Assembly: GCA_004563595.2 (NCBI GenBank)
Contig: CP042461.1
Location: 1,080,001-1,112,000 of the forward strand
DNA length: 32,000 nt
DNA from: Candidatus Saccharimonadota bacterium
Lineage (GTDB): Bacteria > Patescibacteriota > Gracilibacteria > BD1-5 > UBA6164
Direction: 5' to 3'
Below are positions 9,197 through 16,440 of this stretch, piece by piece (the stretch's first letter is position 1; each line of letters starts with the position of its first letter). The notes beneath the pieces were generated by a model. That model was not told where the DNA came from. It worked only from the letters and a program-made list of their open reading frames with translations, and did not search any database. The translations under genes and the position numbers were made by a program.

Positions 9197-9271
9197 GCTC
9201 CCATCGTCTAGTGGTTAGGATACGGCCTTCTCAAGGCTGGGACAGGAGTTCAATTCTCCTTGGGAGTACCA
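9197..9271 (+). tRNA. trnE: tRNA-Glu, anticodon CUC, with encoded CCA
   Basis: Cloverleaf folded by hand:
- acceptor GCTCCCA/TGGGAGT (G1:U72)
- D arm GTCT-AGTGGTTA-GGAT
- anticodon stem CGGCC/GGCTG with loop TTCTCAA
- 4-nt variable region
- T arm AGGAG-TTCAATT-CTCCT
- discriminator A plus CCA

The TCGTCTAGxGG...AGGA core is typical of tRNA-Glu. Confidence 0.9.
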
Positions 9272-9406
9272 TAACGAATTACAAAAAAAAGCCCTCAATA
9301 GAGGGTTTTTTAGTTCAATCCCTTTTGGGTATATTTCTGTATTTTTACTATAAAGTCCCCTTTATTAAGGATACTTATAACAGTTCAATTCCCATTAGGT
9401 GTTTAT
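9263..9406 (+). repeat. Duplicated 144-nt block, copy 1: tRNA 3' core, hairpin terminator, and three decayed tRNA-3'-end-like motifs
   Basis: Aligns without indels to 11779-11922, with about a dozen substitutions. Internal motifs agttcaatcccttttgggtat, gtcccctttattaaggatacttataac and agttcaattcccattaggtg resemble the tRNA T-arm/acceptor end agttcaattctccttgggagtaccataac. Confidence 0.85.
9283..9311 (+). terminator. Bidirectional hairpin terminator after tRNA-Glu
   Basis: A-run, gccctc-aata-gagggt hairpin, then T-run. Confidence 0.7.
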
Positions 9407-9411
9407 TTTCC

Positions 9412-10158
9412 TTAATATTCTTTATCTAAAATGTTTATACATTTATCATGTGCATCTTTATGAGTTCTGAATTCCTTGTTTAAAAAATAGAACAAAGCAA
9501 TTTCATATTTAGGTAGCTCTAAAAATATAAAATTATTTGAGCTATGAATAAAATGAAAATCAGGATTTTTTGTTTTAAAAACAAGTAGTGAATTTATTCT
9601 ATTAGTTTTTGACTTAATAGATATTTTTTTCAATGATTTTCTTAAATTTGAAAATACTTTTGATGGGCTCAACGATAAATCTTGTAGGAAAGAAATTGGA
9701 AAATCTGATAAATATGGTATGAACTCAGAATTTTTATCTTTTTTAAATTTTCTTCTTATATCCATAACTTGCAATTTATATGTAATTGTTTCTAACCACA
9801 AAATAATTAATTCTATATCCTTATATTCAAAACAATTTAATTCTAAATCAACATCTTTCAATTTATCTTGAATTACATATTCTAAATGTCCTAATATTTC
9901 ATTATTACAACTAGAGCAACAAGGTAAAACACTTTTATTATACGTTTGCGAAATGCCATTTGTATTAGTAGTGAAAATTCTTTTCGGATTTCTATCATAT
10001 ACCCACTGAGGTAAAATATGCTCTTTAGTTAAATTATTTTCTATGCCACAAAAAACACATAAATTTAAATTATGGTTTGTTTTTAATTTATCAACTATTA
10101 CACGTTGATTATTTCTAATGTTTTTTCTAAGATCTATTAATCTACTTGTTAATTTCAT
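9412..10158 (-). CDS. HNH-motif nuclease-like protein with an uncharacterised C-terminal domain (248 aa)
   Basis: Intact standard-code ORF. It carries CVFCG...LTKEHILPQW...CCSSCNNEILGH, a Cys4-framed HNH (H-N-H) signature. The remaining roughly 150 aa match no family I recognise. Confidence 0.65.
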   Translation of the reverse strand: MKLTSRLIDLRKNIRNNQRVIVDKLKTNHNLNLCVFCGIENNLTKEHILPQWVYDRNPKRIFTTNTNGISQTYNKSVLPCCSSCNNEILGHLEYVIQDKLKDVDLELNCFEYKDIELIILWLETITYKLQVMDIRRKFKKDKNSEFIPYLSDFPISFLQDLSLSPSKVFSNLRKSLKKISIKSKTNRINSLLVFKTKNPDFHFIHSSNNFIFLELPKYEIALFYFLNKEFRTHKDAHDKCINILDKEY

Positions 10159-10230
10159 GAGAAAATTTCTTTGTCAGCCACTATATCGATCTCCTTCAAC
10201 AATCTATAATAATATCAAAACCTATCCAAT
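10149..10230 (-). repeat. Degenerate copy of the cassette arm, overlapping the HNH start codon
   Basis: 10185-10209 (atcgatctccttcaacaatctataa) matches the arm consensus atcaatctcctccaacaatctataa. The minus strand reads ..FGYYYRLLKEIDIVADKEIFSGN*, compared with NFYRLLEEIDxxxL in the other copies. The tRNA core is not retained. Confidence 0.5.
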
Positions 10231-10242
10231 GATAATGACACT

Positions 10243-10878
10243 CTACCTCCTAGATGCGTTATCTAACATACTGGTTTTTCTAATCCTTTTTTTCTTTGCA
10301 TCTGTTGTATTATCTAATATCGCTTTAGATTTTTTTTCTGCTAGATTGGTCAGCTCTATAAACTCTTCTCGATAATTCCTATACAATGCACCACGCAATG
10401 AAGGGTCGATAATTTGAATATCACCTCTCGAAAGGTAATCTTTCTCTTCATTGCAAGATTTGAGGTATGTGCCAAAATGGAGCTTAAAATAAGTTAGTGG
10501 ATCGCCGTGAAGGCCCCTGTTATAGCATTCATAGCCACTAATATAGGGAGATGGATCGAACTTCTTACCTTGATTCCTGACTACTTTGGCTGCCTCCATT
10601 AATTCTTGGGCGAGCTTTTCCTTTTCCGACAATAAGTCGCCAACCGGGTTAGTAAAGCCTGAAGTATCAAAAACTTCTTCAATAGCCTGATAAGTAACAT
10701 GCAATACCTTACGTATTTCCTTATTGTTTTCAACAGCTTTTTGAATAGCTTCTTTATCTAAACAGCTAATAAATCTAGCACTAAAAAGTAATACTGTTTC
10801 TATTGCTACATTGCCCTGCTTCCCTATATATGCCTTTAGCTCATGCTCACTATAAGAAAGTAATTGATTTATCCCCAT
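10243..10878 (-). CDS. Hypothetical protein, paralogue 1 of a tandem pair (211 aa); no TGA codons, GC-richer
   Basis: Intact ORF in the standard code. It is roughly half identical by eye to the 10946-11581 product. Shared blocks include MGIxxLLSYSExELK, VLLFSAR, KFDPSPY..YECY.R..HGDP, HFG..L.SCN and GALYR. It has a basic C-terminal tail. No family was recognised. Confidence 0.75.
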   Translation of the reverse strand: MGINQLLSYSEHELKAYIGKQGNVAIETVLLFSARFISCLDKEAIQKAVENNKEIRKVLHVTYQAIEEVFDTSGFTNPVGDLLSEKEKLAQELMEAAKVVRNQGKKFDPSPYISGYECYNRGLHGDPLTYFKLHFGTYLKSCNEEKDYLSRGDIQIIDPSLRGALYRNYREEFIELTNLAEKKSKAILDNTTDAKKKRIRKTSMLDNASRR

Positions 10879-10945
10879 ACTTGAAAAAATTAAATATAAA
10901 GTATAATTTATTATAGAATTGATTTGCGGTGATATATTATTGTAT

Positions 10946-11581
10946 TTACTTGCGAGAAGAACTTTCTAAAGCACTAATCTTTTTTAATTTTTTAGCCCCT
11001 CTACTAGTCATTTGTTGTTTTATTACTTTTGATTTTTTTCCAGCAAGATAAGTCAACTTTTCAAATTCTTTGCGATGGCTCCTATATAGCGCTCCCCAGA
11101 GTGCTGGGTCAACAACTGGAACGTCACCACGCCATAGATAATTAATACCCTCTTTATTGCAAGACCCCAAAAACTCCCCGAAATGCTTTCTTAAATATTC
11201 CACTGGGTCGCCGTGCTTTTCTCTTTTATAACATTCATAGTTTGGTAAGTAGGGAGAGGGATCAAACTTTTGACCTTTCTTTTTAGCTGCTTTAGCTGCA
11301 TTCATAAGAACGCTGGCTTGAATCTTTTTGCTCTCCTGCAAGTCGCCCACACGATTTATACAGTTTGGTTCCAGCGCATCTTCAATACCTTGGTAGGATG
11401 CGTGCAATGTCTCGCGTATTTCTGCATTGGTTTCCGCAACCCTTTGAATGGTTTTTACATCTATCAAATTGATTAGCCTAGCACTAAAAAGCAATACCGC
11501 TTTTTTTGTGGTATCACTTTGTTTGCTGATATATTCCTTTAACTCGCGCTCACTATAAGAAAGTAATTCACTTATCCCCAT
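10946..11581 (-). CDS. Hypothetical protein, paralogue 2 of a tandem pair (211 aa); no TGA codons, GC-richer
   Basis: Intact ORF in the standard code and a paralogue of 10243-10878. The sequence just upstream of the start (tatatttatttttttt aagtATGGGGAT) is also duplicated. Confidence 0.75.
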   Translation of the reverse strand: MGISELLSYSERELKEYISKQSDTTKKAVLLFSARLINLIDVKTIQRVAETNAEIRETLHASYQGIEDALEPNCINRVGDLQESKKIQASVLMNAAKAAKKKGQKFDPSPYLPNYECYKREKHGDPVEYLRKHFGEFLGSCNKEGINYLWRGDVPVVDPALWGALYRSHRKEFEKLTYLAGKKSKVIKQQMTSRGAKKLKKISALESSSRK

Positions 11582-15019: not shown

Positions 15020-15099
15020 AATTATATAAATAATAGATTACTAAATACATATATTCTAATTATTACCTGGAATACTTAAGCATATCAACTCTACTCAAT

Positions 15100-15159
15100 T
15101 CTTCTGAATATAGTTAATAAACTGTTAAAAATTCTAAATCCCCTCTATCAGGAGCACCA
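15100..15159 (+). repeat. Cassette boundary repeat R3 (degenerate arm plus core GGAGCACCA)
   Basis: aaatcccctctatcaggagcacca compares with cagcccctcaggagtacca. The minus-strand remnant YSEELSRVDMLKYSR* echoes LLEEIDFDKLNKF but is frameshifted. Confidence 0.45.
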
Positions 15160-15188
15160 ATTTTTAAATAAGGATAAGTTATTTATAG

Positions 15189-16118
15189 TTAAATATTCAT
15201 GGAATCAATAAGATATCTTCAAGATTCAAGATACCTTCATAAATCTGGGATTTCAATCATCTCACTTTTTCTACTATGCACAATATCATTTCTTAACTTT
15301 ATTCATGTAGCAATATCTTTAACTTTATCCTTTAGCGTTTCTCAAAAAAAATCCTCATCTATGCATCTAATGATTTCTTTTAATCAATCTTTTTTACTTC
15401 TCATATAATCAGAAACCTTTTCATCACTTCAAAGCTGTTGTAATAAATATCTTTTTGTTATTATTTCTATTGTGATTATTAATATTATTAATGATTCTTG
15501 CTTATGATTGTCTTTGAATAATCTCACTGCATTCATATAAAAAATTTCCTCAAGACCTATTTGCTCTTCTCACATAAGAATTTTATGAATGTTACTTATT
15601 TCTTCTTCTGTTCTATTTGCTCTTAGCAATGACCATCAAGTTGATGACATAAATAAATTTGATGCGCAACTACTACTTTCTCATACTTTATGGTGGCAAA
15701 TAGTAAATTCTCTCATATCTTCTTTTGATTCAATACCTCATATCTGAAATCTTCCAGTAATTAATCTGTATGAATCTATAAAATCATTTATAATATTTTT
15801 ATAGTATTTCCAGTAAAATCACTCTAAATTATCAAATGGTATTCCTAACTGCAATAAAGGAATAAATACTCTTAATCTACTGAACCTGAAAGCCGCATTT
15901 CTATCTGTTGCTATTTCCATATTTGTCGATTGTCAAAATCGTTCATCAAAACTTTGACGTACGTCTTCGATAACAATAACATATGGTTTTTTATTTCCAT
16001 TAAATTCAAACCTTCATTCTATTAAACGTCATCTATCGATGTGAAAACATATATCGCTTTCATAAGAAATTTCTATATATTCATCCATTCACAAATATTC
16101 ATTCATTGTTTTATTCAT
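15189..16118 (-). CDS. HEPN-domain protein (Rx4H motif), putative abortive-infection-type RNase (309 aa under table 25)
   Basis: I checked every codon: there is no TAA or TAG, and about 20 TGA=Gly. The C-terminal helical domain carries IKLRNDIVHSRK (R-x4-H at comp 15276-15293). The N-terminal roughly 190 aa are unassigned. Confidence 0.65.
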
Positions 16119-16258
16119 ACTATTGTTATTATAGAAGATAATAAACAAGATTTTTATTATCACATCAACATCACTTTTATTAAATAATACTGACTACATA
16201 TTAACAGGACATTAATATTTGAAAGTTTCTTTTACTTTTCAGTTGACTAGATATAAGT

Positions 16259-16399
16259 TTATTGTGATCAAGAAGATAAATCATATAGAAGCTTAATTTG
16301 ATACAGTTTGTATTTCTTTAAAAAATAATTTTAATTCCTCTAAATCAATCTCCTCCAACAATCTATAAAAGTTCGAGTATTCAGCCCCTCAGGTGTACC
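16259..16399 (-). pseudogene. Cassette boundary repeat R4: arm plus core (GGTGTACCA). The minus strand reads as a C-terminal gene fragment.
   Basis: WYTGGAEYSNFYRLLEEIDLEELKLFLKKYKLYQIKLLYDLSSGSQ*. The arm at 16343-16399 differs from R1 at 3 of 57 positions. Confidence 0.6.
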
Positions 16400-16411
16400 A
16401 TAACAAACTAC

Positions 16412-16440
16412 AAATAAAAAGCCCTCATAAGAGGGCTTTT
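16412..16440. terminator. Bidirectional hairpin terminator, probably the original tRNA-Glu/cysK terminator
   Basis: aaataaaaa, then gccctc-ataa-gagggc, then ttttt. It is similar to the hairpins at 9283-9311 and 11799-11827. Confidence 0.7.

Follow-up and report, generated by a model that had tools for sequence, protein, structure and literature searches.

A repeat array at the tRNA-Glu gene of a recoded Gracilibacteria chromosome as a probable fossil record of integration by large serine recombinases

Introduction

How does a row of small gene units, parted by copies of the end of a tRNA gene, come to stand in a bacterial chromosome with no recombinase gene in evidence? The question is raised by the 32,000-nt stretch of DNA analyzed here (CP042461.1, positions 1,080,001 to 1,112,000; hereafter the window), in which the 3' end of a tRNA-Glu(CTC) gene recurs several times downstream of that gene. 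The window belongs to the closed chromosome (1,343,103 bp) of Candidatus Gracilibacteria bacterium 28_42_T64, a bacterium within the candidate phyla radiation (CPR). The array is probably the fossil record of repeated small-island integration into the tRNA-Glu(CTC) 3' end by a family of large serine recombinases (LSRs). This accounts for a seemingly "recombinase-free" repeat array in a closed, curated Gracilibacteria genome, and the explanation is a conventional one, namely decayed tandem LSR islands at a tRNA gene; a split recombinase tail and a repeated flank, termed R below, are the features worth follow-up.

The 28_42_T64 genome, obtained from oil-enrichment metagenomes, was closed and manually curated with paired reads; no other closed, curated Gracilibacteria genome comes from its study, which does not mention mobile elements (PMC6851277). 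Under the standard genetic code the open reading frames (ORFs) of the window are fragmented; when TGA is read as glycine (code 25), whole genes and conserved motifs appear, such as GGGGQNA in FtsZ. Gene coordinates throughout are those of code 25. An independent Logan contig matches the window from FtsZ through the second of two 211-aa paralogues and ends ~3 nt before the core of the repeat junction c2; on our reading, an exact match of ~31 nt between the arms of junctions c2 and c5 would branch the assembly graph at that point. Because the curated genome is closed and the independent assembly has the same left part, the array is not an assembly artefact.

Repeats at the 3' end of tRNA-Glu

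The tRNA gene follows the L11 gene, an order kept in related Gracilibacteria. The junctions, flanks and recombinase remnant downstream are listed here, attB and attP denoting the attachment sites of target and element, and attL and attR the tRNA-side and far-side junctions of an inserted element.

9197..9271, plus strand: tRNA-Glu(CTC), the proposed integration target (ARAGORN; Rfam tRNA model, 57.8 bits)
9272..9405, plus strand: R1, tRNA-downstream (B'-type) flank with spacer, bidirectional terminator (9283-9311) and two tRNA fragments (repeat families D3, D7 and D8; terminator scan)
10178..10209, plus strand: junction cX, a truncated left arm with the distal part only, core and right flank lost (family D4, 88% identical to the arm at 16337-16368)
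11686..11787, minus strand: junction c2, arm 11686-11778 and core 11779-11787, attR-type together with R2 (tail profile; family D1)
11788..11921, plus strand: R2, a repeat of the tRNA-downstream flank that contains a terminator (11802-11827) and two tRNA-like fragments (family D3; terminator scan)
13410..13508, minus strand: junction c3, arm 13410-13499 and core 13500-13508, attP-type with the recombinase remnant at its right (tail profile; family D1)
13509..13724, minus strand: gutted LSR gene (tblastn with the L014 and L007 recombinases; blastn to L014)
15066..15159, minus strand: junction c4 (tentative), strongly decayed arm 15066-15150 and core variant GGAGCACCA at 15151-15159 (one-mismatch core; weak tail-profile match)
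16296..16400, minus strand: junction c5, arm 16296-16391 and core GGTGTACCA at 16392-16400, outermost attR-type (tail profile; family D1)
16401..16447, plus strand: spacer and bidirectional terminator, B'-type flank, then the 3' end of cysK (terminator scan)

From left to right, the array runs from c1 (tRNA, core and R1; attB-like) through an HNH-like gene, the decayed cX, two paralogues and c2 with R2 (attR-type) to a 351-aa gene, c3 (attP-type, with the dead recombinase), a 427-aa gene, the decayed c4, a HEPN-like gene, c5 (attR-type) and cysK.

The core GGAGTACCA comprises the last 9 nt of tRNA-Glu (9263-9271, junction c1) and returns exactly at 11779 and 13500; it recurs with one mismatch in c4 and c5. 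A preliminary description of the window had recognized these copies and placed the last of them 1 nt too low. With up to one mismatch allowed, the 9-mer occurs 10 times in the window against 2.0 expected, and none of 100 shuffles reaches 10; five of the ten matches are scattered chance occurrences. The decisive repeat signal, over the 9-mer count, is the long left arm common to c2, c3 and c5, a 25-nt pattern of which occurs three times in the window against 0 expected. This homology spans ~90 nt, with 71-78 of 92 nt identical. The arm had previously been seen as 48 nt, with 3-5 mismatches in the 57 nt of arm plus core; it is real but longer, and the 57-mers of arm plus core, the last at 16344-16400, mismatch at 5, 3 and 8 positions.

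To the right of the core, c1 and c2 have 148 nt in common at 91% identity (9258-9405 versus the c2 side), R1 and R2 themselves agreeing in 123 of 134 nt. This flank repeat and the truncated arm cX (10178-10209) had both been overlooked. Near-identical terminator-like hairpins follow c1 (terminator 9283-9311, hairpin 9292-9305), c2 (11802-11827) and c5 (16410-16447, a 17-pair stem in the scan; inverted repeats I5 and I7), the resemblance of the last to the first having been pointed out before. R1 is ~74% identical to the equivalent stretch in the related contig L085. R1 and R2 each hold two decayed tRNA-Glu 3' fragments (9311-9331 and 9382-9402; 11827-11847 and 11898-11918), so the region would seem to have a long history of scars. 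These fragments comprise T-arm and acceptor 3' sequence, are ~80% identical and lack ACCA; the R module is also present in L085.

All junctions contain the block GGAGTACCA(T), with either tRNA or arm to its left and either tRNA-downstream flank or recombinase 3' end to its right. Because this is the only block common to all junction types, the crossover would lie within it. Junction c1 and its right flank look like an unoccupied attB. The arm DNA is not conserved in related species, where blastn-short returned chance matches only, and arm-pattern scans of viral contigs gave no matches. A scan of metagenome contigs for core plus arm yielded one real extra site (L094; terminator, core and decayed arm) and one chance GC-rich match.

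A gutted recombinase gene and its displaced tail

Two lines of evidence tie these repeats to serine recombinases. First, the island had been described as having no integrase or serine recombinase, yet an LSR pseudogene lies directly right of the c3 core (13509-13724, minus strand). It aligns by tblastn in three collinear minus-strand pieces: 13724-13662 with residues 1-21 (IKIIIYYRKSTDRDYKQVKPL), which include the YYRKST catalytic-serine motif and in which ATG has become ATA; 13665-13567 with residues 424-456; and 13573-13493 with residues 455-481. Codons 1-21 are fused to the last ~70, ~400 internal codons are deleted, and an in-frame TAG and a frameshift are present. The tblastn E values are 2e-7 for the C-terminal and 8e-4 for the N-terminal part, and blastn to the L014 gene gives 93% identity over 56 nt and 76% over 183 nt. 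The homology crosses the c3 core and reaches 13488.

Second, the left arms match the C-terminal tail of full-length LSRs. The L014 recombinase, lengthened by the arm peptide, served as query for a homology search of 5.8 billion proteins, and the C-termini of the 120 best homologues were compared. Three classes were distinguished:

Tail equal to antisense tRNA-Glu, in either of two frames: 29 of the 120 best homologues, 492-507 aa
Tail antisense to other tRNAs: at least 16 of the 120 best homologues, 462-523 aa
Conserved tail GTPxxFDIRTFKxxLSxIDLxxLxxFxxFIK: 34 of the 120 best homologues, 512-533 aa

Over residues 1-484, recombinases with the tRNA-Glu-antisense tail share up to 66% identity with those that have the conserved tail, and it is precisely at the core that the two part. 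A profile built from the 34 database tails alone was searched against the six-frame translation of the window, and its five best matches are the three arms, with E = 5e-5 to 6e-3. The c3 arm is the best match (E = 5e-5); the c2 arm matches with its proximal part (E = 4.7e-4) and, in the adjacent frame, its distal part (E = 6e-3); and the c5 arm matches in two frames (E = 2.2e-3 and 5.5e-3). A weak sixth match, YSEELSRVDM in c4, has E = 0.08. Since the tail classes part at the core and the arms match the tail profile, the LSR ORF in this family spans attP.

Read on the minus strand, an ORF begun in the core (TGG TAC TCC) runs on through the arm to the same end point in all three copies, and the substitutions are conservative even where the DNA has diverged. 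All three arms have an apparent 1-nt frameshift in common: a first stretch of ~14 tail codons matches the family consensus in one frame, and the remaining ~20 codons match it in the neighboring frame. In L014-like recombinases the core is translated as W-Y-S, a reading that leaves the distal arm part in frame; this suggests that a compensated frameshift arose in an L014-like clade. Searches of open-access text turned up neither a description of a natural serine integrase gene that spans its own attP nor any link between Gracilibacteria and serine recombinases. Many natural attB/attP pairs of the LSR family can be read straight from sequence.

Intact elements and bare tRNA-Glu sites in relatives

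The comparison drew on a collection of species other than the source, in which the best L11 match was 87%. In L007 (10598-12097), L014 (11200-12684) and L088, an intact LSR of 494-499 aa abuts tRNA-Glu on the opposite strand, with its ORF ending inside the tRNA. The L007 and L014 proteins match Pfam Resolvase (E = 6e-21 and 3e-20, respectively) and Recombinase (E = 1e-11 and 6e-15). Beside the LSR genes of L007, L014, L088 and L091 lie genes for proteins of 371-387, 53 and 345-353 aa without Pfam matches; no second resolvase-domain gene was seen beside the LSR in these four. L088 combines the recombinase with a four-gene backbone like that of L091, at the same L11/tRNA-Glu site as in the window; an attR for the L088 element was not found within 10 kb.

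A complete element is present in L091, whose tRNA-Trp bears a clean 8.3-kb insertion. There the recombinase lies directly against the tRNA, a second copy of the 12-nt core stands 8.26 kb away beside a terminator, and a stranded recombinase tail (ending in WQAQKITREELLELINEI and a stop codon) follows the distal core, so that both junctions of one element are visible. Such an orphaned recombinase tail beside a tRNA 3' end offers a simple marker of old integrations in fragmented CPR genomes. In L085, a Fic gene separates an intact, tailed recombinase of 515 aa from an orphan unit consisting of R-like flank, terminator, core and arm; the window has this arrangement from c2 to c3, and the L085 unit is 71-76% identical to the window R and arms. 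In L086 and L087, the gene next to a full-length recombinase is 82% nt-identical (759 nt) to the window gene for the 248-aa HNH-like protein, which in the window has the truncated arm cX before it.

In six related species, nothing but spacer and terminator separates tRNA-Glu from unrelated genes, and two more contigs are broken off at the tRNA. At the tRNA-Glu of L012 (10589-10800), a related species, there is no recombinase; a T-arm fragment in inverted orientation nevertheless occurs there, as does, ~200 nt downstream, a 17-nt copy of the tRNA 3' end in direct orientation, and both are probably scars of earlier integration and excision.

Some family members travel with larger cargo. L086 (3412-19424) and L095 (230-8297) encode full-length LSRs in elements with type II operons resembling the cyclic-oligonucleotide-based antiphage signaling system (CBASS; SMODS, ThiF, JAB and DUF6602), and the L086 element also encodes a relaxase and a TraG/TrwB coupling protein. 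Their gene content suggests mobilizable defense islands in recoded CPR bacteria. A circularity check found no terminal overlap in contigs L095 and L085. P0063, which matches the phrog_95 integrase family, adjoins another CBASS operon. Recoded CPR bacteria thus host a widespread tRNA-targeting LSR family with defense-type cargo (CBASS, Fic, HEPN-like), sometimes with relaxase and coupling protein.

Proposed course of events

The features of an LSR integrative element found here are the resolvase and Recombinase domains (in relatives, with a pseudogene in the window) and a short core common to the junctions. The feature of tandem accretion is the direct-orientation att copies c1, c2, c3 and c5, which bound recombinase-less intervals and one dead recombinase gene. 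In the proposed sequence, the recombinase gene would have stood at the edge of the element, pointing to the attachment site with its reading frame running across attP. Recombination within GGAGTACCA(T) would regenerate the tRNA, and the recombinase on the tRNA side (attL) would receive a tail encoded by the tRNA antisense strand, its own last ~33 codons being stranded at the far end (attR), where they would form the left arms. Later deletion of recombinase genes would have left cargo between att scars. The preliminary description had already taken the repeats for att junctions of stepwise site-specific insertion at the tRNA-Glu 3' end, and had likened the island to the accretion of cis-mobilizable elements (CIMEs); both suggestions hold up, several intervals now being without a recombinase gene.

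We infer the crossover position, the order of events and the present immobility for want of a cognate recombinase. Of the 120 best recombinase homologues, not one maps to the source chromosome, and the window shows no functional recombinase. Because the attB-like c1 and the attP-like c3 persist in direct orientation, where an active cognate integrase would recombine them, we think that the array is now fixed, although its mobilization in trans is conceivable.

Several points weigh against this history. First, successive attP x attB integration predicts a single tRNA-downstream flank, whereas the window has three (R1, R2 and 16401-16447); L085 also has one internal copy of this flank. The extra copies could stem from attR circles inserted into attL, from homologous recombination or from recombinase-less elements that carry the flank. 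Second, the arm frameshift departs from the family profile, and no database recombinase with exactly such a tail was found among the 120 best homologues. Third, the dyad symmetry expected of serine-recombinase sites is statistically undetectable: no significant symmetry was found in the repeats or att sites (three attP-type sites against shuffles, p = 0.5-0.9), and although the best or tied-best dyad center falls on the first core bases in the three attP-type sites, the match counts are not above those of shuffles. Fourth, neither an excised circle nor an empty site nor a strain variant of the array was seen; the exact cysK protein of the window is on record on one contig only. Finally, the fourth copy, c4, is tentative, as the evidence for it is weak.

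Alternative explanations

The array might instead be a working exchange platform, in which the recombinase-less units of R, cargo and arm are still-mobile CIME or satellite cassettes served by a recombinase in trans. Recombination of c1 with c3 would excise circles with an attR-type site, and the reverse reaction would re-insert them at attL; the chromosome would lose 9272-13508 and be left with the attL junction ...TTGGGAGTACCA joined to TTTTGAAAATCAAC, so that the tRNA-P' boundary reads GGAGTACCA and then TTTTGAAAATCAAC. The units do have the same boundaries and varied cargo (in the window the HNH-like gene, the paralogue pair and the 351-aa gene; in L085 Fic), an attR circle inserted into attL would yield precisely such extra copies of R, and the c1 and c3 cores are intact and in direct orientation. 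L085 has an intact full-length recombinase beside such a unit, and cis-mobilizable islands were proposed for a like situation in Dehalococcoides (PMC3146451). We nevertheless judge this explanation unlikely. The array offers no circle, empty site or variant cassette set; no cognate recombinase on the source chromosome is among the 120 best homologues; junctions cX and c4 show decay, and the array's own recombinase gene has been destroyed. Moreover, attL x attR recombination by serine integrases requires a directionality factor, and none was identified here.

A bolder version makes the tail itself the switch: exchange of the ~33-residue tail for a tRNA-antisense tail would control the activity or directionality of the LSR, and the locus would be a serine-recombinase cassette exchanger. 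This is rather improbable. If it were true, a circle of R, cargo and arm inserted at attL would restore a full-length recombinase and return the terminator to the tRNA, and cassettes would leave by attB x attP and enter by attL x attR, a functional analogue of the integron on a tRNA end in CPR bacteria. The split C-terminal tail at least provides a testable idea on directionality control.

That the locus is a new integron-like system, its tRNA-derived site capturing single-gene cassettes without any linked recombinase, had seemed plausible from the short repeat-bounded intervals, with one or two genes each and mostly one orientation. Integrons require the IntI tyrosine recombinase, attI, the promoter Pc and folded attC palindromes. 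The repeats here are the displaced 3' ends of LSR genes rather than attC-like palindromes; a gutted recombinase lies in the array, and intact ones occupy the same tRNA in L007, L014 and L088. No IntI tyrosine recombinase with attI and Pc was found among the code-25 ORFs of the window or the Pfam-annotated public gene calls. An integron-like origin is thus very improbable, and the array is not free of recombinase sequence as had been supposed.

It is equally hard to credit that the arms are functional parts of cassettes (upstream ORFs, leaders or promoters that drive the minus-strand genes and were duplicated with them). They do stand upstream of minus-strand genes at 10158, 11581 and 16106, and the distal arm ORF is open in all three copies with conservative substitutions. 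However, the conserved frame has no start codon, promoter-like sites are not enriched (44 against 51 expected), the c3 arm faces a convergent gene, and the arm peptide is homologous to the C-terminus of full-length recombinases. In Rfam the tRNA alone scores above threshold, and the arms match no RNA family.

The chance that the repeats are a segmental duplication or assembly artefact without site-specific recombination is close to nil. In its favor, R1 matches R2 at 92% identity and the paralogue pair arose by tandem duplication; against it, the curated genome is closed and finds agreement in an independent assembly, the intervals between repeats are mutually unrelated, and the junction types fit the logic of attB, attR and attP. 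An orphan-module polymorphic-toxin array was also considered and rejected, a stop codon and not a variable domain following the conserved segment.

Relation to known systems

Contrary to what had been thought possible, the principle itself is not new. The closest described analogue of the array is the set of ssrA islands of Dehalococcoides (McMurdie et al. 2011), which are tandem serine-recombinase islands bounded by repeats of the RNA gene's 3' end; about half of them lack an integration module and were proposed to be cis-mobilizable through accretion (PMC3146451). In both cases tandem islands lie downstream of a small stable-RNA gene with short direct repeats of its 3' end, and the ~540-aa Dehalococcoides serine recombinase, beside attL on the reverse strand, resembles the present LSR family in this respect. 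The differences are several. Instead of tmRNA, tRNA-Glu is targeted here, and different tRNAs by other members of the family; no DsiA-like second small serine recombinase and no six-gene integration module were seen; the LSR ORF crosses attP, each attR having a ~90-nt displaced gene end; and the host uses code 25, with islands that are much smaller, 1.2-2.9 kb at present.

Accretion of CIMEs and of integrative and conjugative elements (ICEs) has reportedly been described in streptococci (Pavlovic 2004, Bellanger 2011). The window resembles these in having att-flanked DNA without recombination or transfer genes, stacked beside an integrative element at the end of a tRNA or other conserved gene; unlike them, with their tyrosine integrases and long identity segments, it involves a serine recombinase, and any mobilization would be hypothetical. 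With integron arrays it has in common a row of short gene units parted by a recurring recombination site, although that site here consists of a tRNA 3' end and the end of a recombinase gene. An attP inside the element's coding sequence, such that integrated and free proteins differ, also occurs in SSV1-type archaeal integrases and in the integration-dependent immunity of mycobacteriophages, reportedly set out by Broussard et al. in 2013. Those cases concern tyrosine integrases or repressors, whereas here the last ~15-35 residues of an LSR are swapped for a tRNA-antisense tail.

Cargo genes and the right border

The genes between the junctions, and the gene that follows them, are:

9412..10158, minus strand: 248-aa HNH-like protein, no in-frame TGA (phrog_10503, E = 1e-57; HNH_5, E = 0.0075, below the curated threshold)
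10243-10878 and 10946-11581, minus strand: two tandem 211-aa paralogues (code use, GC, homologues)
12273..13328, plus strand: 351-aa protein, 5 in-frame TGA (AbiH, E = 0.018; PADLOC PDC-S21, E = 1e-4, both weak)
13736..15019, minus strand: 427-aa protein, 8 in-frame TGA (code-25 ORF; no family)
15189..16106, minus strand: 305-aa protein with an Rx4H motif (RNDIVH), HEPN-like below threshold (public gene call; HEPN_RiboL-PSP, E = 0.028; HEPN_Apea, E = 0.079)
16513..17445, minus strand: cysK, flanking gene, its 3' end following the c5 flank

Searches of Pfam, PADLOC, NCBIfam and PHROGs gave sub-threshold or unknown-function matches only, and the array cargo is, at most weakly, defense-like. The HNH and HEPN labels first attached to two of these genes persist as sub-threshold matches; for the SIR2 label of the 351-aa protein no match was found, the weak AbiH and PDC-S21 hits appearing in its place. 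The family of the 248-aa protein, phrog_10503, is of unknown function in PHROGs, and the 427-aa protein has no match in Pfam, PADLOC or NCBIfam. No homology links the window cargo to the genes that neighbor the recombinase in L007 and L014.

The two 211-aa paralogues stand apart in code use. Not one of their 24 glycine codons is TGA, whereas TGA makes up 51% of those in 19 host genes (P ~ 3e-8), and their GC content is higher (0.37-0.39). Their best homologues are proteins of 287-293 aa from Colwellia and Pseudoalteromonas, at 57-69% identity, and the Pseudoalteromonas homologue sits in a conjugative-element-like region. Code use and homology thus point to acquisition from standard-code Gammaproteobacteria, by way of mobile elements. 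Colwellia was dominant in the community where the 28_42_T64 Gracilibacterium bloomed (PMC6851277), and the genes look recently transferred to this code-25 genome from mobile elements in the lineage suspected as host. With these TGA-free genes, the island documents gene flow from gammaproteobacterial mobile elements into a recoded genome.

An ancestral order of tRNA-Glu, terminator and cysK had been proposed and could not be confirmed. In none of the related Gracilibacteria examined does cysK lie within 10 kb of tRNA-Glu, and its closest homologues, 80-85% identical, are in proteobacterial-type contexts (sucAB, ferrochelatase, Lgt). The cysK relatives returned by the homology search are proteobacterial, with no empty-site comparator among them. 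The gene may itself be an older acquisition, which leaves the true right border of the island uncertain, and the variable region may once have extended further right.

Other observations

The second gene upstream of L11, beyond an SDF transporter gene, encodes a 616-aa VirB4/TraG-like P-loop ATPase (4471-6321; Pfam P-loop_TraG and AAA_10). Because 78-82% identical copies stand a little way upstream of L11 in L006, L009, L010 and L012, it is a conserved chromosomal gene outside the island. Before the tRNA, a perfect 20-bp palindrome with a 7-nt loop (9130-9176) overlaps the stop codon of a gene for a 224-aa membrane protein, and also the best promoter-like site of the tRNA (TAGACA, 16 nt, TATAAT; 9152-9179).

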